Source: an uncultured Ignavibacteriaceae bacterium
Lineage (GTDB): Bacteria; Bacteroidota; Ignavibacteria; UBA10030
DNA length: 64,000 nucleotides
Reading direction: 5' to 3'
NCBI GenBank assembly: GCA_964362905.1
Contig: CAYIHQ010000002.1
Coordinates: forward strand, 46,076-110,075
The position numbers and the translations under genes are program-made. The notes under the pieces are model-generated. The model did not search any database and was not told the origin of the DNA. It worked only from the letters and a program-made list of their open reading frames with translations. Positions 2,345 through 61,789 of the stretch are shown here, one piece after another; the first letter of the stretch is position 1, and every line of letters starts with the position of its first letter.

Positions 2345-4096
2345 ATGGCACAAATTACATCACTTGCAAAAGTGTTGAGCGGTTTGGTTAGGAATTACGA
2401 TTTTACCGCTGACGAATTGGTATTCGGCTCGGTACGATTTGGCGGATTAGCAGGTACAGAACTTACTAAAACTATTTTAGATAGTTTGATTGCTAATTCT
2501 CATGCATCTGGTTCTGATAACCAGAACGTTGTTGCTGGATCAGGTCTTACTGGAGGCGGTTCTGGCGCTACAGTCACATTAGATGTCGGCGCAGGTTCTG
2601 GTATTACTGTTAATGCTAATGACATTGCTGTAGATAGCACTGTTATTAGGGCTAGTGGAGCTAATGCTTTTACTGCCGATCAATCTATGGGCGGATTCAA
2701 GCTTACTAACGTAGCAACGCCCGTTTCTGGTACTGACGCAGCTAATAAAAATTATGTTGATTCTTCAATACAAGGTCTCGACATTAAGCAGTCTGTTAGA
2801 GCCGCTACTACTGCAAATATTACATTAAGCGGAGCGCAAACTATTGATGGCGTGTCTATTATTGCCGGAGATAGAGTTTTAGTTAAAAATCAAACTACTG
2901 GGTCTGAAAATGGTATTTATGTAGCCGCTGCTGGCGCATGGTCACGATCTTCTGACGCTGATGTTAGTGCTGAAGTCACTGCAGGAATGTTTACATTCGT
3001 TGAGGAAGGTACTGCAAGTGCTGATAGTGGTTGGACATTAATTACCGACAATCCAATTACATTAGGTACAACTTCTTTATCATTTTCACAATTCTCAGGT
3101 GCTGGCTCTATTACTGCAGGAGCTGGATTATTAAAAACTGGGAACACAATTGATGTACAAACAGCAGACGATTCTATTACAGTTAATGCTGATAGTATTC
3201 AAGTTAAACGAGATGCTGCAGGCGCTTTAGGTCTTACAGCTTCTGGAGTTAAGGCTAATGTAGACGGTTCTACAATTGAAATAGCTACTAATGCTCTACA
3301 ATTAAAGGCACTAGGAATTACTAACGCTCATGTTAGTGCTACTGCTGCAATTGCGTACAGCAAACTATCTTTATCAAATAGCATAGTTGATGCGGACATT
3401 AATTCTGCAGCAGCTATTGCTTATAGTAAATTGAGTCTTTCAGGCTCTATTGTAAACGCAGATATTAGTGCTTCTGCGGCTATAGCCTACAGCAAATTAA
3501 GTCTATCTAACTCAATTGTGAATGCTGATATTAATGCTTCAGCCGCAATTGCATACAGTAAATTATCTTTATCTAACAGTATTCAACTTGCAGATATGAC
3601 TGCTGATTCTGTTGATGAAAATAAGATTAAATCTACTTCTCATGATGCATCTCTTTCTGGCGGATCGGGCTCAGTACTTTCAGTAGTATCTTCTCCTTCT
3701 GGTAAGAAAACTATGGTAGCTGGAGAAGCCTTTGCTGCTAATACTTCTTTCTTAGTACGTTTTGCCGTTAGCGGCGAGACTGCGGGTCGAGTTTATAAAG
3801 CGACATCAGCTAGTGCTGTTGCTGACGGTAAATTCTGGTCTATAGGAGTAGCTATCGGTACTGGACAAGTTGCTGGGAATAATATTGATGTTATTCTATT
3901 GGGATCACATACACTAGGCTCTTCTGACACTGCTTTCGGTGCTGGCGATATTGGTAAAGCTTTATGGCTTACTACTGCTGGCGGATTCTCTGTTACTGCG
4001 CCAAGTGCTTCTGGAGATGCCGCATTTAGAGTAGGTTCTGTTGAAATTACTACTAAAATGTTCATTGACGGAAAACAATTGACTGGTATATCATAA
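2345..4096 (+). CDS. tail fibre protein with four tandem 20-aa repeats
   Basis: RBS AAGGGG. Gly/Ser/Ala/Thr-rich beta-rich composition. Internal repeat AAIAYSKLSLSNSIVNADIN x4. Confidence 0.65.
   Translation: MAQITSLAKVLSGLVRNYDFTADELVFGSVRFGGLAGTELTKTILDSLIANSHASGSDNQNVVAGSGLTGGGSGATVTLDVGAGSGITVNANDIAVDSTVIRASGANAFTADQSMGGFKLTNVATPVSGTDAANKNYVDSSIQGLDIKQSVRAATTANITLSGAQTIDGVSIIAGDRVLVKNQTTGSENGIYVAAAGAWSRSSDADVSAEVTAGMFTFVEEGTASADSGWTLITDNPITLGTTSLSFSQFSGAGSITAGAGLLKTGNTIDVQTADDSITVNADSIQVKRDAAGALGLTASGVKANVDGSTIEIATNALQLKALGITNAHVSATAAIAYSKLSLSNSIVDADINSAAAIAYSKLSLSGSIVNADISASAAIAYSKLSLSNSIVNADINASAAIAYSKLSLSNSIQLADMTADSVDENKIKSTSHDASLSGGSGSVLSVVSSPSGKKTMVAGEAFAANTSFLVRFAVSGETAGRVYKATSASAVADGKFWSIGVAIGTGQVAGNNIDVILLGSHTLGSSDTAFGAGDIGKALWLTTAGGFSVTAPSASGDAAFRVGSVEITTKMFIDGKQLTGIS
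3340..3590 (+). repeat. four tandem ~60-bp coding repeats inside the fibre gene
   Basis: Near-identical 60-nt units encoding ...AAIAYSKLSLS(N/G)SIV(D/N)ADI(N/S)... read directly from the sequence. Confidence 0.8.
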
Positions 4097-8570: not shown

Positions 8571-11048
8571 ATGTCAAAAACAACAAATGTTAGATCAGGT
8601 TCTGTATATCAATCTCCTACTCAAAATGGAGATAGATCTTTTATTCCAGATGGGTCAGTATCCTCTAATAAAATACAGGACTTAGCGGTTACGAAAGCTA
8701 AGTTAGCAGATAGTGCTAATATTTTCGAAATGATTAAGAATGGTTTTCAGAATTTTGTGGATCAATCAGTATTAATGACTGCTACAACTGCTACAGGAAC
8801 TCCTGCTGCAGGAACTTTCCACAGTACTGTTGTTGGTAGAGCTTCTATATCGGATTTGAGTCAGAATTTGAAGGTTCAAATGGGTCCTGAAAGAAATGTA
8901 ATACCAAATTTATATCAGTTACAAAATGAATTCGGCCCAAATGGGGAGCCTGTATTTGGTGTAGTTAATGATACTCTAGGACAAGTACGATTTGTAGGAA
9001 ATTGGTCTATGATTTTCGGTTCCGCAGGACAATACACTTATAACGGAAATCTAAGTGGATTTTATGTAGAAATTACTTTATATGGAACTGGACTAAATCT
9101 ACTAGCAAACGCTTATGGGGTATCACAGTCCTATCTAGTATCAGTAGATGGTGGTAGTGAATCCGCATTAGTAACCCCTACTTATTCTAACATCTTAGAT
9201 AATAGGTACTATAATTCTAATCAATACTTAAACATAGTTTCAAATTTAACACTAGGCGTTCATACTGTAAGAATAAAGATAAATGCCTCTTTCACTCTTG
9301 CTATGACAGGCTTCGAAATCCTTAACGAATCCTCAAGTTTAAAAATTAATCCAGGAACTAGTTATATTGATGGTCAAAAGATTACAAGTACTTCTCAATC
9401 CTCTATTGCTTACAATTCTGCTTTTGAATCAGGAACATTAGGGACAAAAGGTGGAAGAGTATTAGTATATCAAAAATTAGATAAAACCATTGCTAAAGCC
9501 TTAGCTCCAACCAACACTTCACAATTGACACTCACTTCAACAAATCATACTAATGAAGAAGTAGCTAGAATTTATCATTATAGAGAATTCGCAGCTGGAA
9601 GAAGTGATGATTTTGGCACAAATGGTGCTGTAGTAGATAGAGCTTTCACTCTAGATGATGGTACTACTACCTTAACTGGAAGTGGGATAAATTTTGAATC
9701 AGCAGTTGATGCGATAGGACCAGGTGGTACAAATTCCTTTATTACTTTTTCTTTTGTAGGTACAGGATTGGATTTTATCAGATTAGATTCAGCAAATGGT
9801 GCTTCTGCTGATACTTTTAGATATTTCATTGACGGAACACAAGTAGGATCTGATATTACTGGCACAGGATCTACAGCTTCTAGAATTATAAAAATAGTTT
9901 CAGGATTACCTTATGGTACTCACACCTTCATATTATCTAGGGTTGGTGCTGGTATTACTTATGATATAGGTATTAAACAATTCATAGTCTATCAACCTAA
10001 AAAACCAACCCTCCCTGTTGGAGCTATCGAATTAGCTGATTATAATATAATGGCTGACTTTGTAGCAAACACTACTGCAGGAGTGGGAACTATTGCCACA
10101 GGGATCCTGAGAAAATATTCCACTAGAGAAATGGTTTATGTGAACGGAACGGGTGGAACAAATGATTGGGCCTTTTCAGTTATGGACCCCGCCGCTAGAA
10201 TTGGTGCTTGGGAAGCAGCTTCAAATAGGGCGAATGCATATATTGAATACACCTTCATTGGAACAGGTTTTGAGTTTCGGTGTGCAACACAGAATAATAG
10301 ATCGGCTAATATTTCTGTGACCCTAAATAGTCTTGCTGCTACAACTGCAAATTTTGGATCTCTCGTGTCAAGCACTTATGGTGTTGGGGTAACTTTTGCG
10401 GCTGGGGTAATGGATCTATATGATGTTACTAATACCCCTGGCGTTGGGGTTAGAGTAAGTGGACTGCCTTTAGCTAAATACACTGTGCGCTTTAATAACA
10501 ATACTGCCGGTTCTTACATCGTATTGGATTGTCTAGACATTATCACCCCAATCTACTCAGCCAAATCAAACGTCTATGCAGACTACCAGAATACATTAAC
10601 AGTTGGGTCTAATGCAATTTGTGATAGTAGACAAGTATCTCCCCTTAAAAATGGAGTTTCTGTTAAAAAGAATTTGGCTCAAGCAAAGGGCATAGCTTTA
10701 AGTCCCACAACAACATCCACAACACCAGTTCCTATGCCAGACATGAGTTGTACTATAAAAACAGCAGAAGGTAAGATTAAAATAAGTGTATTTGCTACTG
10801 TTTGGCCAACTTTAGGACCTATAAATCTCACGTTGAAAGCCTTCGTTGATGGTGTTGGTATTAACCCACCTGTATTCACAAGTCTTAATACTACAGGTAT
10901 TCATTTTGAGACTTCTGGCGTTTGGATAGTTCCTGTTTCACCTGGAACACATAAAATTGATATATATTGGAGTACAAATAGCTCACAAATAAATGGGTCT
11001 GATGCAGGCGGTATCCCAATAAGATTACTTTTAGTAGAAGAGGTTTAA
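8571..11048 (+). CDS. tail fibre / receptor-binding protein (825 aa)
   Basis: RBS AAGGA. Thr/Ser/Gly/Asn-rich beta composition, size and context. Confidence 0.55.
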   Translation: MSKTTNVRSGSVYQSPTQNGDRSFIPDGSVSSNKIQDLAVTKAKLADSANIFEMIKNGFQNFVDQSVLMTATTATGTPAAGTFHSTVVGRASISDLSQNLKVQMGPERNVIPNLYQLQNEFGPNGEPVFGVVNDTLGQVRFVGNWSMIFGSAGQYTYNGNLSGFYVEITLYGTGLNLLANAYGVSQSYLVSVDGGSESALVTPTYSNILDNRYYNSNQYLNIVSNLTLGVHTVRIKINASFTLAMTGFEILNESSSLKINPGTSYIDGQKITSTSQSSIAYNSAFESGTLGTKGGRVLVYQKLDKTIAKALAPTNTSQLTLTSTNHTNEEVARIYHYREFAAGRSDDFGTNGAVVDRAFTLDDGTTTLTGSGINFESAVDAIGPGGTNSFITFSFVGTGLDFIRLDSANGASADTFRYFIDGTQVGSDITGTGSTASRIIKIVSGLPYGTHTFILSRVGAGITYDIGIKQFIVYQPKKPTLPVGAIELADYNIMADFVANTTAGVGTIATGILRKYSTREMVYVNGTGGTNDWAFSVMDPAARIGAWEAASNRANAYIEYTFIGTGFEFRCATQNNRSANISVTLNSLAATTANFGSLVSSTYGVGVTFAAGVMDLYDVTNTPGVGVRVSGLPLAKYTVRFNNNTAGSYIVLDCLDIITPIYSAKSNVYADYQNTLTVGSNAICDSRQVSPLKNGVSVKKNLAQAKGIALSPTTTSTTPVPMPDMSCTIKTAEGKIKISVFATVWPTLGPINLTLKAFVDGVGINPPVFTSLNTTGIHFETSGVWIVPVSPGTHKIDIYWSTNSSQINGSDAGGIPIRLLLVEEV

Positions 11049-17107: not shown

Positions 17108-18157
17108 TTATTTTTCGTTTGTATAAGTCCCGTTCTCTTTAGTAGTATTGTTGCTAATTTTTATAAAAGTTGCTTTCTCTTGGAATTCTTTTAAATTAGA
17201 AGCTCCTACATAAGTGAAAGCTGACCTCAAACCACCTTCAATATCGCTAAGAACTTCTTTAGCCGAACCTTTTAGGGGTACTGTAGTACTGATACCTTCA
17301 GCAGTTCGCCATTCTGCTACCTTACCCTGCTCCCCATAAGAAACTAAGCTTGCAGAGCCCTTGTAGAGCTTTACAGGGCATACTTTTTCGCCCTCTGGAT
17401 AAATAATTTCTCCAGGAGTTTCAGTAGTACCAGCTAACATTCCCCCAATCATTACAGCACTTGCTCCAGCGGCTAAAGCCTTAGCAATATCCCCAGCATG
17501 TCTTATTCCCCCATCAGCCACTATAGGAAATCCTGCAGAAGCGCAGTCAATAATAGCATATAATTGAGGCACTCCTACTCCAGTTTTTAGACGAGTAGTA
17601 CATACTCCTGAAGGACCTAGCCCAACCTTAAAAGCATCAGGAAATAACTTAGTATCATTTAGTTCTAAGCAAAAATGTTTAATTGATTCTCCAGTAGCAA
17701 AATTACCTGCTATAATCTCAATATTATTTTTATACTTTTCTCGTAAAAATCTAACTTGCTCTACTACGGCTAATTGTGCCCCATGAGCAACATCAATAAA
17801 TACAATCTCAGCTCCACTATCAATAAGAGCTATTGCTCTTTCTTTTTCTCCATTAGTAATACCTACAGAAACTGCAACATTAGGAGTATGTTTGAGTACT
17901 TCTTTTAGGGCCTTAACATTTTCTTCTATAGAGCAGAATCTATGAAGAACTCCCATTCCTCCAGATTTAGCCATAGTAATAGCCATATCAACTCCAGTAA
18001 TAGTATCCATATTTGAACTAATTACTGGAAGATTCAAGTCCATACCTGATATATATACATCTTTACGACTTCTGATATTTGTATAGTTAGGAAGCAATAA
18101 CACATCGTCAAAAGTTAAATATTCGCTAGTTTTTATTCTCATTTTGCTATTCCTCAT
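17108..18157 (-). CDS. guaC: GMP reductase (IMPDH/GMPR family, no CBS insert)
   Basis: About 349 aa. Motifs [19 protein letters not shown], [17 protein letters not shown] and TFIKI align closely to GuaC. Confidence 0.85.
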
Positions 18158-46043: not shown

Positions 46044-46743
46044 ATTCTATTATAGTTATTGTATTGGTGGGATCATAACATTCGTCACACGAACTTGCGT
46101 TATGATACATAATACCATCTTTCTCTACAGTCTTCCCACCCCAATTATGTATATGTCCGAATATGTGATGTTTAAGTTGTTTAAGTTCTTTAATTCGTTC
46201 CGATAATTTAACACACCCAGCAAATTGTCCTTTAGGATCTCCGCTAACATATACCAATTCGTCTAATATACCATACGGCGGTCCGTGGGTTATTAGTATG
46301 TTGGTGTCGTCAGGTATCATATCCCAATGAGGTTTAATTTCTCTTATTTTCCTAAATTGTGCTTCATTAATATCTCTAGCCCTATTAAAAGCCCAGTCGC
46401 AAAAAAAGGGAGTTACTGGAGAACCATGTATTTTAACTCCGTCAATAATCACACTACTGTCGTTTAATAGTATAATTCCATTCTGTTCACACATATCTTT
46501 GGCTAAAGAAGGATTTGTTTCAAACAACCAATCATGGTTTCCTGCTATTAAAATTCTATGCGAGAAATCTAATTTACCATACCATTTTAGAAAATTGGCT
46601 ACTTCGCTTATGGCACCTTGGCCTGTAGCATCGCCAGCATGTATAATAATATCACCGCCTAAAGCATTTTCTACCTTAAGTTCTTTAATAGCCTTATGCC
46701 TATTATGAGTATCGCTAATTGCAACAATAGCTAATTTACTCAT
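45997..46743 (-). CDS. calcineurin-like metallophosphoesterase
   Basis: AISDTH, GDATGQG, AGNHD, GHIH motifs. Confidence 0.75.
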   Translation of the reverse strand: MSKLAIVAISDTHNRHKAIKELKVENALGGDIIIHAGDATGQGAISEVANFLKWYGKLDFSHRILIAGNHDWLFETNPSLAKDMCEQNGIILLNDSSVIIDGVKIHGSPVTPFFCDWAFNRARDINEAQFRKIREIKPHWDMIPDDTNILITHGPPYGILDELVYVSGDPKGQFAGCVKLSERIKELKQLKHHIFGHIHNWGGKTVEKDGIMYHNASSCDECYDPTNTITIIEYEKDQNGISNKFFAE

Positions 46744-49330: not shown

Positions 49331-49589
49331 ACAGAAGTTTTCCTATTTTAGTTTTTTTAATTAATCTATCTTTTTTGCGGCGTTCTAATTCTAAGTATAA
49401 AAATGGTAATATTCTTTTAGATGTTCTAGACTTAACATGTTCAATAATTTTTTTTATGTGTCTGGGTCTTAAGTTGCATATTGGTATAGTTTGTCCGTCT
49501 AAAGTAGTCCAAATTTCTCCATAGCTGTATTGTATCTCTGGATCAGCTAAAAGTCTTTTAGGATACTGTTTATACTTTTTCACAAACAT
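49320..49589 (-). CDS. small basic protein ending ...KIGKLLYGR (LYG-tail family)
   Basis: C-terminal motif. Confidence 0.35.
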   Translation of the reverse strand: MFVKKYKQYPKRLLADPEIQYSYGEIWTTLDGQTIPICNLRPRHIKKIIEHVKSRTSKRILPFLYLELERRKKDRLIKKTKIGKLLYGR

Positions 49590-50122
49590 CCCTTATACAA
49601 TATATCAAAAACTTCAGCTTTTATGTTATTTTCTTTTAAAATCAGCTTTATTAAATAGTTTTTATATTCTTGTTGTTTGGCTGCAATAGGAGCATTGGTG
49701 GCACGGGCGGAGGAGGAGTCACGGGCGGTGGAGATGGCGGCATAGTCAGTAGCATGGGCGGCAGACAAGGCGACGGTGGAGGTAGTGGTATTGACGACTG
49801 CATAGGCGGCATATGCTGTGGCATAGGCGACGGAGGAGTCACGGGCGGTTATGGAGGGGACACTGGCGGTGGCATGGGCTGCATTGGCGGCCGTCCTAAT
49901 ATCTTTTTTAGAAACTTCCTTACCCAAAAGTAAGTCTCCCAAAATTTTCAACACTTTATTTTGCTTAATATAAATTTCTTTATATTTTGCATGATCATAA
50001 TTGGCCCTAGTATCTTTTACTACAAATATAAGAAACTTATACAAAATATTTTTATTGTCGTATTCTGCCAAAATAGTTTTTATGTCAGAACTCATAAGAC
50101 TTCTAAGATTTAACTTTTTCAC
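49580..50122 (-). CDS. Ala/Tyr-repeat protein, paralog A
   Basis: Conserved N- and C-terminal modules flank a low-complexity A/Y/S/T/H core. Ends ...FDILYKGCL. Confidence 0.5.
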   Translation of the reverse strand: MKKLNLRSLMSSDIKTILAEYDNKNILYKFLIFVVKDTRANYDHAKYKEIYIKQNKVLKILGDLLLGKEVSKKDIRTAANAAHATASVPSITARDSSVAYATAYAAYAVVNTTTSTVALSAAHATDYAAISTARDSSSARATNAPIAAKQQEYKNYLIKLILKENNIKAEVFDILYKGCL

Positions 50123-50592
50123 ATATACCTCATAACTAACTGTTCATATTTTTTACGCTTAATTTTATGTGAAGTGTTATACCTACTCCAATAATTTGGC
50201 TCTTTATAGTTTTTCTTCAAATCTTTTAGAATTTGGGCAGTACAATTTATTGAATAATCAAGATCAATAAGTAATCTGTTCTTATCAAAATTATAATATT
50301 TAATAGTTTTGATATTTATTTGTCCTATAGAATAGTCATTGCTTTTGCTCAAAACATTCAATTTATATGACGATTCTTGCATTAACATAGCTGTCAGTAT
50401 TTTTGAATCAATCTTGTGAACTTTGTGTATTTTATCAATTAAACTAGATAGTTTCACGGCATAGTTTTTATCAATAGTGGGATTATTCTTAATAATTTGA
50501 TGAAAAATAGGACTTGCCTGGGGTGATGTTGTTTTAGCGAATACTTTAATGGATAGTATTAATAACATGCTGATTATTATATTTTTTTTCAT
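50119..50592 (-). CDS. lytic transglycosylase (SLT domain) with signal peptide
   Basis: Signal peptide MKKNIIISMLLILSIKVFA. LMQESSYKLN and YSIGQINIK are SLT catalytic-region motifs. Confidence 0.6.
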   Translation of the reverse strand: MKKNIIISMLLILSIKVFAKTTSPQASPIFHQIIKNNPTIDKNYAVKLSSLIDKIHKVHKIDSKILTAMLMQESSYKLNVLSKSNDYSIGQINIKTIKYYNFDKNRLLIDLDYSINCTAQILKDLKKNYKEPNYWSRYNTSHKIKRKKYEQLVMRYM

Positions 50593-51059
50593 ATGATCTT
50601 ATTTCCATATAGTATTGAGAATGCTTTGCAGTCAATTTTGTTATCCTCTAATACTAGCTTGATTAAATATTGTTTGTATTCTTGTTGTTTGGCGACATGG
50701 GCGGCAATGGTGGCGGCAATGGTGGCGGCATGGGAAGCGGAGTGGGCGGCATAGGCGGCGGAATTGGCGGCATGGGAAGCGGAGGTGGCATGGGCGGCGG
50801 CAAAGGCGGCGACAAAGGCGGCCTCAATATCTTTTTTGAGAACCACCTTACCCAAAAGCAAGTCTCCTAAGATTTCCAACACTTTATTTTGCTTAGCGTA
50901 AATTTTTTTATATTTACTGTGGGCATAATTGAGCATAGTATCTTTTACTACAAATATGAGAAATCTATATAAAATAGACTTTGAATAATATTTTTGTAAT
51001 ATACTTTTAATATCAGAATTAATTAAAGTTTTAATATTCAAAGTTTTCATTAATAACAA
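50589..51059 (-). CDS. Ala/Tyr-repeat protein, paralog B
   Basis: Same flanking modules as A. Core AAFVAAFAAAHATSASHAANSAAYAAHSASHAATIAATIAAHVA. Ends ...FSILYGNKII. Confidence 0.5.
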   Translation of the reverse strand: MLLMKTLNIKTLINSDIKSILQKYYSKSILYRFLIFVVKDTMLNYAHSKYKKIYAKQNKVLEILGDLLLGKVVLKKDIEAAFVAAFAAAHATSASHAANSAAYAAHSASHAATIAATIAAHVAKQQEYKQYLIKLVLEDNKIDCKAFSILYGNKII

Positions 51060-51649
51060 TCCTCTGGAAATCTAAGTAAGGTTATCTTAACAGTTTTAGC
51101 TCCATCTCTATATTCTTCGAATATACCGCCTCTATGAGAGAATAGTTCTTTTTCGCCGAATATTTCCTCTTCTGTTAATTTTCTTCCGAGTTTCTTTTCT
51201 ATTCGTTTAACTTGAGAAGTATCAGGTATAATAACTGAACAACTAGCTATAGGTAGAAATATTTTATTAGTAAAGCCACATCCAAAAATATCGTCAGGAT
51301 ATTTTTTGCTATATGCCCATCTATCGTATAATTCCATAAACATTGAATCAAAAGATATGTTCTTTAGATACTCCCATTGCTTTTCTTTGGGTAGTAAATC
51401 ATATTGATAAAATTCTTTTTCCCAAATAATGAGCCTATTTCCAGAACACTTCTGTAATCCGCTATCATCTAAAGTAAGTTTTGATAAACAATTAGGACAA
51501 AAAATAAAATTACTTCGAGTATTGTTTATTACTTTTTTATCTTTAGTTTTAAACTTCTGTACTATGACCTTTTGGCCACTTACTTCAGTTTCATATTCAG
51601 CTATTATGTCTTTGTTCTTTTTCTTCATCTTTTTGTAGAACCTTTCCAT
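51050..51649 (-). CDS. hypothetical protein with zinc-ribbon (CPNC ... CSGN)
   Basis: Four-Cys pattern. Confidence 0.4.
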   Translation of the reverse strand: MERFYKKMKKKNKDIIAEYETEVSGQKVIVQKFKTKDKKVINNTRSNFIFCPNCLSKLTLDDSGLQKCSGNRLIIWEKEFYQYDLLPKEKQWEYLKNISFDSMFMELYDRWAYSKKYPDDIFGCGFTNKIFLPIASCSVIIPDTSQVKRIEKKLGRKLTEEEIFGEKELFSHRGGIFEEYRDGAKTVKITLLRFPEDCY

Positions 51650-51806
51650 CTTGGATTACATAACCATTTTTGTTACAAAACCCGATGAAGCTTTCTATTA
51701 CTGCAATAACAATACCATTATCGTCTTTTCCATAATTCACCCAGTGGTTAATAGAATCAGATTTAATTTCAGAATATTGTTTATTACTAAGTTTAATTTC
51801 TTTCAT
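51597..51806 (-). CDS. small hypothetical protein (69 aa)
   Basis: ORF. Confidence 0.3.
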   Translation of the reverse strand: MKEIKLSNKQYSEIKSDSINHWVNYGKDDNGIVIAVIESFIGFCNKNGYVIQDGKVLQKDEEKEQRHNS

Positions 51807-52309
51807 ATATATAACATACCATAAGTTTTAGTATTAATTCCATTTTCTTCTAATACTAGCTTTATTAAATAGTTTTTATATTCTTGTTGTTTGGCTGCAT
51901 AGGCGGCATCGGCGGCATAGGCGGCGGCATAGACGGCATTGGCGGCATAGACGGCGGCATAGACGGCATCGGCGGCATAGACGGCGGCATAGACGGCATT
52001 GGCGGCATAGACGGCGGCATAGACGGCATTGGCGGCGGTGGTGGCGGCATAGGCGGCGGCATTGGGGGCATTGGCGGCTGTCCTAATATCTTTGCTAGAA
52101 ACTTCCTTACCCAAAAGTAAGTCTCCCAAAATTTTCAACACTTTATTTTGGGAATCATAAACTTCGCTATGGTTTTTACAGTCATAAGTGGCCCTAGTAT
52201 CTTTTACTACAAATATAAGAAATCTATACAAAATAGACTTTGAATAATGTTGCTCTAGAATATTTCCTATACCAGAATTTTGCATTTGTTTTAAATCTAT
52301 TTTTGACAT
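51803..52309 (-). CDS. Ala/Tyr-repeat protein, paralog C
   Basis: Core AVYAAVYAANAVYAAVYAADAVYAAVYAANAVYAAAYAADAAYAA. Flanks near-identical to A at the DNA level. Confidence 0.5.
   Translation of the reverse strand: MSKIDLKQMQNSGIGNILEQHYSKSILYRFLIFVVKDTRATYDCKNHSEVYDSQNKVLKILGDLLLGKEVSSKDIRTAANAPNAAAYAATTAANAVYAAVYAANAVYAAVYAADAVYAAVYAANAVYAAAYAADAAYAAKQQEYKNYLIKLVLEENGINTKTYGMLYI
51895..52075. repeat. 15/30-nt tandem repeat (ggcggcatagacggc / attggcggcatagac) coding for (AVYAAVYAA[N/D])n
   Basis: Read directly. Similar but degenerate tracts at about 49685..49900 and 50690..50830. Confidence 0.8.
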
Positions 52310-52323
52310 ATTATATTCTGGCC

Positions 52324-53787
52324 TTATCTTTTTACTCGTTTAGTAACAACAATTTTAGTTTTAGAACCGAAATTTATTGAAGAGTCTAGAGTGTGTGGCG
52401 GAGTTAAGCCCCATAAAACTTGATATTTAGGTTTTTTAATGTTTTCGTTCCAACATCCTCCATCAGTACAGTAAATTAAACCGTCAATTTCCAATTTTTC
52501 TTTTTCAATAAAATCAAACACTGGCTTAAATGCTGTTCCGCCTCGACCATGGACTTTAAATTCTTTGCGAGGGTCAAACTTATAAGGCTTATTATTAATT
52601 TGTGTATCACATTCAATTACAGTTAGATCAACTCCCATATTATGTAATCTGATCATTTCTGCATGAAATTGCCCTAATTCTTCATCCCCAACTGAGCCAG
52701 ATGTGTCAAGGGCTACAACTAATTGCAATTTAGGAAAAGTTTTATTTCCAGGGTATAAAATACCATATCGTCTATTTCTTTTCTTTCTTGTTGATTCTAT
52801 CAATATTTCAGAGCATCTAGCAGAGAATTTTTGTATATCTCCACGCCAGTCCTTTGGAACATAATTAAGTTTTTCGATAGCTGCAATAACATCACCTGGC
52901 AACTTACCCATATCTTTATCGGCTGTTTGTTCTGCTGCTTTATTGACAGCATCTTTTACCTTTTGAGTAATATCATCTTCAGTATTATCAGTTTCGTGCC
53001 AGATATTGTGGTCATCAAGAACTATATATTGTTCTGCGCCATTTTCTCCATTCTTTTCTTGTTGTTCTTTAAGAAATTCGTAGTAGTACTCCATTGTTTG
53101 TCTGTTTTCAATATTTGGGAATTTCTTTTTAAGAAGTTCGACGAATATCAAATCTGCCTCAACTGGCATACCAGCATCTTTATCGGGATTGGGGATATTG
53201 TTACCTTTTTCGTCCTTGATGTGAGTTGGTACATTAATAGTGTTACCATTATGGTCAAACATCTTGACCTTACGAGGAAGGTTGGGCAAATATTCATTTA
53301 TGGCAGCATCGGCAGCTTTATTAGTTGTACTGGCTTTTTGCATATCCATAATACGATCAAAAATTGATTTATCTACATTATCAAATACTTTAGGCTCAAT
53401 ATCTCTAAATCTAACAAAATGATTATTAATAACATGATGAGCCTCATGTTTCAAAACATCTACTCTCTGCGGCAAATTCATTGCACTAAAAAAATAAGGA
53501 TTAATATGAAGATTAACTTGATCCGTGACGCTAACTCCAAGCGTTGGCAATTTTACCGTGAATTCTCTGCGCATACCCATGATAAGATTAGCATAGAAAG
53601 GTTCAGCGAATATCAATTCCACAATAGTTTGTTCAAGCAGTTCTTCTGCCTTACCAGTAATTCTATTAAGTCTCTCTTGATCGAGAGGTTCTTGGTGTGG
53701 CTGTTTAGTAGCTTCTTTTTTAGTTTCTTTAGAGCGCATTTTAAACCTCTCATTAGTTAAAGGGTAACAGCAGCCTGTCAAACTCAC
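52324..53787 (-). CDS. vWA-domain protein with N-terminal HExxH putative metallopeptidase module (DUF2201-like partner of MoxR ATPases)
   Basis: LKHEAHHVINNH (HExxH). VVALDTSGSV fits the MIDAS DxSxS motif. Confidence 0.6.
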   Translation of the reverse strand: MSLTGCCYPLTNERFKMRSKETKKEATKQPHQEPLDQERLNRITGKAEELLEQTIVELIFAEPFYANLIMGMRREFTVKLPTLGVSVTDQVNLHINPYFFSAMNLPQRVDVLKHEAHHVINNHFVRFRDIEPKVFDNVDKSIFDRIMDMQKASTTNKAADAAINEYLPNLPRKVKMFDHNGNTINVPTHIKDEKGNNIPNPDKDAGMPVEADLIFVELLKKKFPNIENRQTMEYYYEFLKEQQEKNGENGAEQYIVLDDHNIWHETDNTEDDITQKVKDAVNKAAEQTADKDMGKLPGDVIAAIEKLNYVPKDWRGDIQKFSARCSEILIESTRKKRNRRYGILYPGNKTFPKLQLVVALDTSGSVGDEELGQFHAEMIRLHNMGVDLTVIECDTQINNKPYKFDPRKEFKVHGRGGTAFKPVFDFIEKEKLEIDGLIYCTDGGCWNENIKKPKYQVLWGLTPPHTLDSSINFGSKTKIVVTKRVKR

Positions 53788-53854: not shown

Positions 53855-54952
53855 TTACAGGTCTTCGAGTTTCATGTTACGAGCATTAGCAAGAATCTTT
53901 AGTAGATCTTCGCTATTATCAATGATTTCACGAGCATTATCTTCTAGATATAGATTACGACATAAGTCGAAAGCCAAATCTTTTGGTATAGTTTTCAAGA
54001 ACTCCACAATATTAGAACTCTGTTCTTTAGTGGGCTTCTTTTTAAGTTCTTGAATCGATTCAAAGAGGCTATCACAAGTATACTTAAGCATATCTTGACG
54101 CCCTCCAGTTTTAGCATCAGAATACTTCTTAATTCTAGACGCTACTTTATCGTAACTATCAAGAATATCTTTACCGTTAATTGGCTTATCAGTGTCACTA
54201 AGTGACTTTATAAATGCCGCACTAGCCGCAGTGCCGACCAATCCAGATGTTAGTTCACGCAATAAATTGACTGGAGTCTTAATAGACATTAATCTATTAA
54301 CTGCTTCCCAAGAGCGTCTTGATGGTTTTACATCAACATCAAAAGATTCTAATTCAGTTTGTAGCAGGGTTGGCTGATCTTGTAAAAATTGGATTAATTG
54401 CGGTTCAAACTTACGAAACTTAGCATAATCAAAAAACTCTTGTTTACTTGGTGCTAGTTTAATATGACAGAAACGGTCCATTAAAGCTTTATCTGAAATA
54501 TCAGTAACAATATAATCTTCGGTATTTGGGTTCATCGCACTAATTACATAGAAATTGGATGGAAATGTTGTGGCGTGGATGCGTTTTTCTGTCAACAAAG
54601 GAAATATAACTTGTAACACATCTCTACGAGCACGATTAATTTCATCAAGAAACAGAATAGCCTTTTTGTCTGGATTAGCTAAACAAAACTCATTGATCTC
54701 TTTAGCCCAATCTGGCATCATAAATTGAGTAGATACATTATTACCGTCTTTGTCTTTCTTAAAGTCTGCTAGACCGATAATATCCCCTACTTCTTGGGTA
54801 CCCAAATTCAGGATTTTTAGAAGTGCTTTTTCTACTTTAGCATATTGACTCACGCCTTGAGTTTTGCCTATTCCATGATGTCCTACTAATAATGCTGGAA
54901 TTTCAGCCTCTATTAGATATGGTAATGCTTCTTTTAAGGTTTTAATGTTCAT
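53855..54952 (-). CDS. MoxR-type AAA+ ATPase
   Basis: Walker A LLVGHHGIGKTQ. Walker B ILFLDEINRA. About 365 aa, single AAA module. Confidence 0.7.
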   Translation of the reverse strand: MNIKTLKEALPYLIEAEIPALLVGHHGIGKTQGVSQYAKVEKALLKILNLGTQEVGDIIGLADFKKDKDGNNVSTQFMMPDWAKEINEFCLANPDKKAILFLDEINRARRDVLQVIFPLLTEKRIHATTFPSNFYVISAMNPNTEDYIVTDISDKALMDRFCHIKLAPSKQEFFDYAKFRKFEPQLIQFLQDQPTLLQTELESFDVDVKPSRRSWEAVNRLMSIKTPVNLLRELTSGLVGTAASAAFIKSLSDTDKPINGKDILDSYDKVASRIKKYSDAKTGGRQDMLKYTCDSLFESIQELKKKPTKEQSSNIVEFLKTIPKDLAFDLCRNLYLEDNAREIIDNSEDLLKILANARNMKLEDL

Positions 54953-61618: not shown

Positions 61619-61657
61619 AGTAATACAATCTATTTTTAATAAATAGATTGTATTACT
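61619..61657. promoter_or_regulatory. perfect 17-bp inverted repeat (agtaatacaatctattt / aaatagattgtattact, 5-nt spacer) in a 195-bp AT-rich gap
   Basis: Read directly. On the minus strand it is immediately followed by TATAAT, then AGGGAG and the ATG of 61293..61595. Confidence 0.5.
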
Positions 61658-61789
61658 ATATTATATATATATATTATATAATACTTATTATATATATCCT
61701 ATAGTATATTATACATTGAATCACATATAAAACAATTAATATTTTACATTTATTATTACTTATTTGAATAATCTAATAATATTAAGTCC

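Follow-up and report, generated by a model that had tools for sequence, protein, structure and literature searches.

Among the immunity proteins of bacterial polymorphic toxin systems, Imm5 is the predicted α-helical counterpart of DYW-deaminase and CdiA-CT toxins, and a role as a versatile α-helical scaffold able to bind toxins that are unrelated to one another has been proposed for it (PMC3239186; PMC3482391). The Imm5 literature we found has no mention of a repeat-encoded hypervariable core. Bacterial contingency loci and proteins with in-frame variable-number tandem repeats (VNTRs), in which slipped-strand mispairing makes simple sequence repeats vary, are characterized by tandem repeats and by high rates of insertion and deletion (indels) between otherwise identical genomes; in the in-frame VNTR proteins the repeat unit is a multiple of 3, which changes the length of the protein and does not switch it off. 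Here we describe three paralogous genes, A, B and C, that have points in common with both groups. They lie in a stretch of 64,000 nucleotides (the window; positions 46,076 to 110,075 of contig CAYIHQ010000002.1, assembly GCA_964362905.1), which is part of a tailed phage with a genome of ~113 kb and ~32% GC. Unlike the bacterial contingency loci, these genes are viral, non-structural and accessory, they occur as three paralogs at once, and their variation is a property of the whole family to which they belong; an adaptive role of this variation is our proposal. The reading that we favor, with moderate confidence, is that A, B and C are all-α proteins of the early operon of the phage, in which an Ala-rich helical segment is varied by slippage and which act as binders or inhibitors of host proteins.

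The original prediction, made from the letters of the window alone, had described A, B and C as paralogs with conserved ends and repeat-encoded variable cores, and this description agrees with the protein alignment of the three open reading frames (ORFs), all of which are present on the minus strand. An invariant-rich N-terminal region of ~75 residues and a C-terminal region of ~30 residues (AKQQEYKNYLIKL...), both helical, are common to the three proteins, and the cores between them differ in both length and sequence. The predicted coordinates of A and C stand. For B, which had been placed at 50589..51059, the ATG at 51050 is a more likely start than the TTG at 51059 because the homologs and the database calls begin with MKTLNIK, and for A the GTG at 50122 is the most likely start, since in the alignment it falls where B and C begin and it overlaps the stop codon of the SLT gene that lies upstream. 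The DNA flanks of A and C had also been called near-identical, which is right next to the core, where 57/60 nt agree in codons 61–80 and 30/30 nt in the 10 codons that follow the core, and overstated for the flanks as a whole, whose identity is 75–80%. The identity around the core would fit either gene conversion across the cores or a strong constraint. The three proteins are basic (isoelectric point 8.4–9.6), have no transmembrane segment and no evident signal peptide (a hydrophobic N-terminal stretch is lacking), and matched no model in a Pfam scan.

The cores are set apart from the rest of the genes by their repeats, base composition and codons. In C, Tandem Repeats Finder (TRF) reported a period of 30 nt in 5.5 copies with 91% matches and a score of 253 (51893–52057), bearing out the almost perfect 30-nt repeat that had been read directly from the DNA. 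In B it reported periods of 12, 21 and 42 nt (50698–50822), and in A no repeat above the threshold. A motif (GCCGCCTATGCCGCC, allowing ≤2 mismatches) occurs 25 times in the window, always within one of the three arrays, with 0 occurrences expected. The GC content is 0.68 in the C array, 0.70 in the B array and 0.63 in the A core, against 24–26% in the rest of the same genes. Ala makes up 34–51% of the three cores and is encoded by GCC at 74 of 83 codons (34/35 in the C array and 21/23 in the B array), compared with a GCC share of 13% in background genes, and C is the third base of most four-fold degenerate codons in the cores. The A core has kept this signature (GCC 19, ACC 7, TCC 8 and GTC 5) while its tandem identity is gone, and it is a decayed array: its longest exact repeat is 18 nt at an offset of 120 nt, whereas C has exact repeats of 36–48 nt. 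This 18-nt direct repeat encodes TARDSS twice, roughly symmetrically about the middle of the core, and no allele of A with a 120-nt deletion between its two copies was seen. Although the arrays use codons in a strongly atypical way (GCC/ACC/TCC), no tRNA gene was found in the 64-kb window of the ~113-kb phage.

Relatives in the databases are few in number, with length variants among them. Array alleles were obtained by comparing independent assemblies of the same phage with the window as reference, the allele sequences coming from short-read assemblies. Over about 38 kb, five independent assemblies differ from the window outside the arrays by 1 SNP, and the array changes are those of contigs L001, L002, L004 and L005. 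That SNP is in L001 (Hainich H52_R2; 20.4 kb aligned), in which all remaining differences are indels or substitutions within the arrays of C (−60 nt) and B (−42 nt). The other three contigs have no difference outside the arrays: L002 (Hainich H43; 11.4 kb aligned) carries the −42 nt allele of B and ends at 51997 inside the C array, L005 (4.0 kb) has −30 nt in C, and L004 (Logan run; 1.9 kb) has +33 nt plus an adjacent SNP in B. There are thus three length alleles of C (148, 158 and 168 aa) and three of B (139, 153 and 164 aa), and every array indel observed is in-frame, as in the VNTR proteins; both genes combine a tandem unit that is a multiple of 3 with copy-number polymorphism among near-identical genomes. 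For A, the 180-aa product was recorded for 7 contigs, no other length was seen, and L001 and L002 carry an identical A gene. Array length therefore changes far faster than the substitution rate elsewhere in the genome, and perfect arrays vary where decayed ones do not. The 42-nt indel of B sits exactly between two 20-nt exact direct repeats, and the deletion allele (P0005) is the exact loss of one repeat plus the spacer, a hallmark of slipped-strand mispairing or of recombination through short homology. These observations give good support to repeat slippage as the mechanism, and the slippage-prone, variable locus that had been suggested from the tandem repeats and their flanks is borne out, the repeat length being different among related genomes.

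We then asked how widely such proteins occur. An exhaustive search with a profile of A, B, C and their close relatives recovered 64 cluster representatives at E ≤ 1e-3, 16 of them at E ≤ 1e-10, and a word-indexed search with a wider profile recovered at least 1586 proteins (scored subset). Nearly all of the 120 matches listed from the wider-profile search lack a Pfam domain or a name. PHROG 18326 (function unknown) was matched by C (2.3e-4) and by 10 of 40 family members. All inspected members have three parts, namely an N-domain with the consensus ...kVxFAlyCAkD...YD.kKYP.vy....cleLv..WL..., an Ala-rich repeat core with repeats of the AAYAAAN type or the SAAWSAAESAAR type, and a C-terminal amphipathic helix, and many carry an N-terminal extension of ~130 aa. 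The Ala-rich helical core (25–100 residues) is kept in nearly all of the family, with an Ala share of about 50–65% in most cores; the constraint on it is loose, in that composition is conserved and sequence is not. In two members, P0011 and P0031, the N- and C-terminal domains are well conserved and the center is not Ala-rich; their cores may have decayed completely or been replaced. Within an array the Ala codons are uniform, and lineages differ in the codon that they use: GCT in 13/13 cases in L003, GCG in 29/30 in L008, GCA/GCG in L009, and GCC in L006 and L011. These differences by lineage indicate that each array arose recently and locally, by amplification of a short unit. A universal need for GCC codons at the DNA level was considered and rejected, as other lineages use GCT, GCG or GCA.

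Repeat-driven length variation is general in the family. In a related phage (JGI contigs L006 and L007), the first paralog is 187 aa long in one contig and 201 aa in the other, owing to a 42-nt array indel in an overlap that is otherwise about 99% identical. Three further, unrelated clusters at 90% identity, whose members are 100% identical outside the array, contain 7 length alleles of 289–359 aa (P0101), 5 of 182–233 aa (P0144) and 4 of 205–253 aa (P0106). Two loci of the P0106 cluster, L023 and L024, come from an unrelated 33-kb phage and were compared over 20.7 kb; they have no differences outside the array of the gene, and the arrays differ by 72 nt. The five distant member loci that were examined, some of them from cultured Xanthomonas phages, are all in early or replication regions of phages, with neighbors that include Cro-like, RecT, Dam, HNH, integrase, primase, DnaB and RusA genes. 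In L008, an ORF (8976–9671) ~500 nt downstream of family member P0162 is weakly similar to it (39% over 43 aa, E = 9e-7), and paralog sets may, on this sequence similarity, exist in distant lineages too.

Members of the family are also present in the cultured Xanthomonas phages KPhi1, NEB7 and the XapPhi series. The proteins of the Xanthomonas Kantovirinae phages (e.g. KPhi1 K1pha_60, APQ41939.1) are annotated only as hypothetical; they have the long form of the N-terminus (~130-aa extension) and SAA[WRE]SA repeats, and their genes come just after the primase gene. Their arrays are degenerate and stable within clades (284–285 aa or 327 aa), differing between clades. The homolog is unannotated in XapPhi1, 2, 4 and 6, and two GenBank records labeled as complete genomes, XapPhi1 (L013, PP391659.1) and XapPhi2 (L022, PP391660.1), end inside its Ala-repeat array, which probably broke these assemblies or set the ends of the records. 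No match came from the INPHARED phage collection, queried at the DNA and protein level with the locus, C and P0015, from scans of IMG/VR and GTDB genomes with close-family patterns, or from a word-indexed protein search with the N-domain only, and PADLOC and NCBIfam gave low-complexity noise only.

The relationship to Imm5 emerged from comparisons with the Pfam models Imm5, Imm5_like and DUF6931 (PF14423, PF21805 and PF22011), to which 2–3 of 40 relatives had sub-threshold matches. P0126, which matches the family profile at 4e-18 and carries AAYAA/AAWSAA repeats, is a bona fide Imm5_like protein (46 bits against the Pfam cut-off of 25). When the full-length profile was aligned with P0126 in hhalign, only the repeats were aligned, and the N-domain-only profile, which is free of the Ala repeats, matched residues 39–103 with a probability of 93% and E = 3.5e-7. 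On the strength of this match we regard the family as phage-borne and remotely related to the Imm5-like superfamily, and not as belonging to the Pfam families; judged from these sequences, A, B and C would be only remotely related to Imm5-like proteins, at the superfamily level. Both groups comprise small all-α proteins, and the alignment with P0126 has in common a hydrophobic helix with the motif ...F-A-x-x-C-A-x-D..., a Y-D/P-x... motif, a helix ending in W-L and then an Ala-rich helical region. The very large phage family with its general array-length variation and the remote Imm5-like link are both new beyond the original prediction.

The structure of C was predicted with AlphaFold2 (AF2) on a 7-sequence alignment, a check that had been suggested for the repeat region. 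The model is all-α, with a predicted local distance difference test score (pLDDT) of 79.5 and a predicted template modeling score (pTM) of 0.71, and contains helices at residues 24–41, 48–65, 72–111 and 115–155. In this model, the repeat core of C is predicted to fold into a long hairpin of antiparallel helices leading back to the C-terminal helix. Independently of AF2, the spacing of the non-small residues in the cores peaks at 3.3–3.9 residues in 26 of 36 family members, which is the signature of an amphipathic α-helix. In their Ala-rich composition, the placement of larger residues at α-helical spacing and the predicted helix-turn-helix hairpin, the cores resemble Alacoil-type antiparallel hairpins as well as helical repeat proteins rich in Ala, examples of which are type I antifreeze proteins and PE/PPE helices. 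The strict 5-residue period of C is, in contrast, atypical of them, and no sequence or structural match accompanies the resemblance, which is an analogy only. Sequence searches of the PDB gave matches at chance level only.

In the mechanism that we propose, A, B and C would be small, basic, cytoplasmic all-α proteins made from the long minus-strand early/replication operon of the phage, each combining an N-domain related to Imm5-like proteins, an Ala-rich amphipathic helical segment and a C-terminal helix. The arrays expand and contract by slipped-strand mispairing or short-homology recombination between exact direct repeats of 20–48 nt, possibly with the help of the phage's own ERF, exonuclease and RecA-like genes, and their copy number would tune the length and the surface of the helical hairpin. 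Arrays that decay by point mutation, such as that of A, become stable, and new arrays repeatedly grow from seeds of a single codon type. We infer that the proteins function as binders or inhibitors of host proteins; they would do so as stand-alone proteins, most plausibly against defense or toxin effectors, with the variable segment as the tunable part, and the presence of three paralogs would broaden the repertoire or specificity.

Several results weigh against this reading. No toxin domain is encoded next to A, B and C (the neighbors are SLT, the 199-aa ORF, MoxR, VWA and sigma-like genes), no defense gene was found adjoining them, and no partner gene is conserved across the distant family loci, so that, in contrast to Imm5, these genes of a phage early operon do not qualify as a polymorphic-toxin or polyimmunity locus. 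A, B and C themselves have no match to Imm5_like, Imm5 or DUF6931 at E ≤ 1, and the link to Imm5 depends on the single bridging sequence P0126. In the AF2 prediction of C the confidence in the repeat region is 65–70 and 3 of 5 models are poor, the single-sequence prediction of A is unusable (pLDDT 42), and Foldseek searches against the PDB and BFVD returned nothing better than E = 1.7. Searches of the literature yielded nothing on the family, on the function of its members or on its repeat motifs. The dN/dS ratio of the flanks between paralogs is 0.2–0.65 with no sign of positive selection, crude codon counts suggest near-neutral change in the decayed core of A, the variation in length may itself be neutral, and in the longest perfect arrays some of the copy numbers may be assembly errors.

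The main rival takes up the point of neutrality. It holds that the conserved N- and C-terminal parts do the work and that the array is a low-complexity linker, a tolerated slippage-prone spacer without adaptive meaning. The loose constraint on the core sequence, the conserved end domains of P0011 and P0031 around non-Ala cores, the roughly neutral-looking codon changes in the decayed A core and flank ratios typical of ordinary purifying selection would all be expected of such a spacer. Against these stand the retention of an Ala-rich helical core in nearly all of a very large family, the repeated regeneration of cores by fresh amplification with Ala codons differing by lineage, the α-helical periodicity kept in most cores and the in-frame nature of all observed indels. 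On balance, we regard a neutral linker as possible, though on the unlikely side.

A second alternative is that the alleles are copy numbers mis-resolved in short-read metagenome assemblies. Contigs L002, L004 and L005 break at array edges, which fits heterogeneity or graph ambiguity there, the XapPhi1 and XapPhi2 records end within the homologous array, and the L007 indel is inside an 80-nt exact self-repeat. However, the direct repeats that bracket the 42-nt indel of B are only 20 nt long, too short for an artefact of k-mer collapse, which also does not explain the new sequence in the 33-nt insertion. The longest exact repeat at the L024 gene is 58 nt, contig names of the form k141_... suggest an assembly with k = 141, and allele P0005 was recovered on 3 independent contigs. 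We regard an assembly artefact as improbable.

In-frame repeat variation is common in phage fiber and decoration proteins, and the window has a tail-fiber-like ORF of its own with 22-aa repeats, which raises the question of whether A, B and C are virion-associated fibrous or decoration proteins whose length is tuned by the repeats. This we consider quite improbable, since the three genes are on the strand opposite to the tail-fiber and virion genes and inside the replication/early operon, distant members adjoin Cro, RecT, primase or Dam genes, and no structural PHROG was matched.

The pentapeptide or antifreeze-like architecture that had been suggested from the 5-residue periodicity finds no support beyond the strict 5/10-residue period of C, and a pentapeptide-repeat or antifreeze-like β-solenoid or ice-binding fold is very improbable. 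Pentapeptide-repeat proteins have A(D/N)LXX repeats that form a right-handed β-helix, and there is no match to their Pfam model (PF00805) at E ≤ 1; AF2 predicts helices, and most relatives have a 7- or 11-residue spacing (e.g. SAAWSAE, AAYAAAN) on top of the α-helical periodicity seen across the family. Type I antifreeze proteins are secreted single helices with an 11-residue Thr-X10 pattern, whereas the cores repeat every 5/10 residues in C and every 7/11 in relatives, the spaced residues are Y/N/D/W/R without regular Thr, and A, B and C have flanking globular domains.

Least credible are an expressed product in another frame and diversification by a diversity-generating retroelement (DGR). 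Long ORFs that are Gly-rich on the opposite strand or Pro-rich in the +1 frame do overlap every array, but the Ala frame alone is continuous with the conserved N- and C-terminal domains, and the GCT (L003) and GCG (L008) arrays of relatives would read Ser or Arg and not Gly on the opposite strand, marking these ORFs as by-products, as had been supposed. As for a DGR, the variation consists of indels and not of adenine-specific substitutions, a scan of the ORFs of ≥250 aa in the 64-kb window of the ~113-kb genome turned up no reverse transcriptase, and outside the three arrays the window lacks any copy of the motif GCCGCCTATGCCGCC that could serve as a template.

Taken further, the favored reading of A, B and C as slippage-varied binders would make them part of a widespread, unrecognized class of tunable phage accessory proteins, in which a slippage array varies an Ala-rich helical hairpin on an Imm5-like scaffold. 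Such a class would amount to a viral contingency system at the protein level in an arms race with host defense or toxin effectors, and A, B and C would resemble a polyimmunity locus; we offer this extension tentatively and find it rather doubtful. If the array variation is adaptive, the family would provide phages with a simple, DGR-independent way to diversify an intracellular binding protein, and candidate anti-defense or anti-toxin genes would be present among proteins now labeled hypothetical. The cultured Xanthomonas phages that carry members (KPhi1, NEB7 and the XapPhi series) make the family directly testable. For sequence databases, Ala-repeat arrays of this kind break or distort short-read phage assemblies, as in the two complete-genome records of GenBank that end inside one.

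Table 1. Coordinates of the three paralogs, their arrays and other features of the window.
Feature	Position	Strand	Description
Paralog A gene	49580..50122	-	180 aa, GTG start
A core	49679..49897	-	degenerated array (A/T/S/Y/V/D/R); tandem identity lost; stable in population
A core, 18-nt exact direct repeat	49712-49729 and 49832-49849		encodes TARDSS
SLT lytic transglycosylase	50119-50592	-	Pfam SLT 1.3e-8; between paralogs B and A
Paralog B gene	50589..51050	-	153 aa from ATG; alternative TTG start 51059
B array	50691..50825	-	Ala/His/Ser-rich; 12/21/42-nt periodicity; hypervariable
Exact direct repeats of B, 20 nt x2	50723-50742 and 50765-50784		TGGCGGCATGGGAAGCGGAG (+ strand); bracket the 42-nt indel
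199-aa ORF	51050-51649	-	no significant family match
Paralog C gene	51803..52309	-	168 aa; N-domain, repeat core, C-terminal helix
C array	51893..52084	-	30-nt (10-aa AVYAAVYAA[N/D]) tandem repeats; Ala-rich; copy number hypervariable
DUF2201 VWA/metallopeptidase	52324-53787	-	immediately upstream of paralog C
MoxR-type AAA ATPase	53855-54952	-	upstream of paralog C
22-aa-repeat ORF	2345-4096	+	matches tail-fiber, head-decoration and virion-structural PHROGs
66-nt (22-aa) tandem repeat	3326-3604		~4 copies
IMP dehydrogenase/GMP reductase-family gene	17108-18157	-	Pfam 6.9e-91
TA-rich microsatellite	61657-61713		(TA)n / TATAT, ~57 nt

The virion and tail-fiber genes of the phage are on the plus strand at 1–14 kb of the window. 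A long minus-strand block holds DNA polymerase A, ribonucleotide-reductase-like, GMP-reductase-like, RecA-like, ligase, DnaB and ERF genes, together with a PD-(D/E)XK nuclease, a sigma-like protein and the pair formed by the MoxR ATPase and the VWA/metallopeptidase. A, B and C lie inside this replication/early block, between the MoxR-VWA pair, the sigma-like gene, ERF, DnaB and ligase. Start and stop codons overlap at each downstream junction, indicating that the genes form one tightly packed operon. A lytic transglycosylase and two other ORFs had been noted as interleaved with the paralogs, and they were recovered as the SLT gene, the 199-aa ORF and a 69-aa ORF. An Rfam search of 47–55 kb of the window gave no match.

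In the related phage represented by L006 and L007, the gene order is MoxR, VWA, a small gene, a paralog, a homolog of the 199-aa ORF, a small gene, a second paralog, a small gene and SLT, and the adjacency of MoxR and VWA to a paralog is thus kept. The SLT lytic transglycosylase, which is conserved in L006, has a signal-peptide-like N-terminus, and an early/replication operon is an unusual place for a murein hydrolase. Elsewhere in the window, the phage has a second, unrelated coding repeat (AAIAYSKLSLSNSIVNADINAS...) in the plus-strand ORF with matches to tail-fiber, head-decoration and virion-structural PHROGs. The IMP dehydrogenase/GMP reductase-family gene is an auxiliary gene of nucleotide metabolism, and TRF also reported a TA-rich microsatellite.

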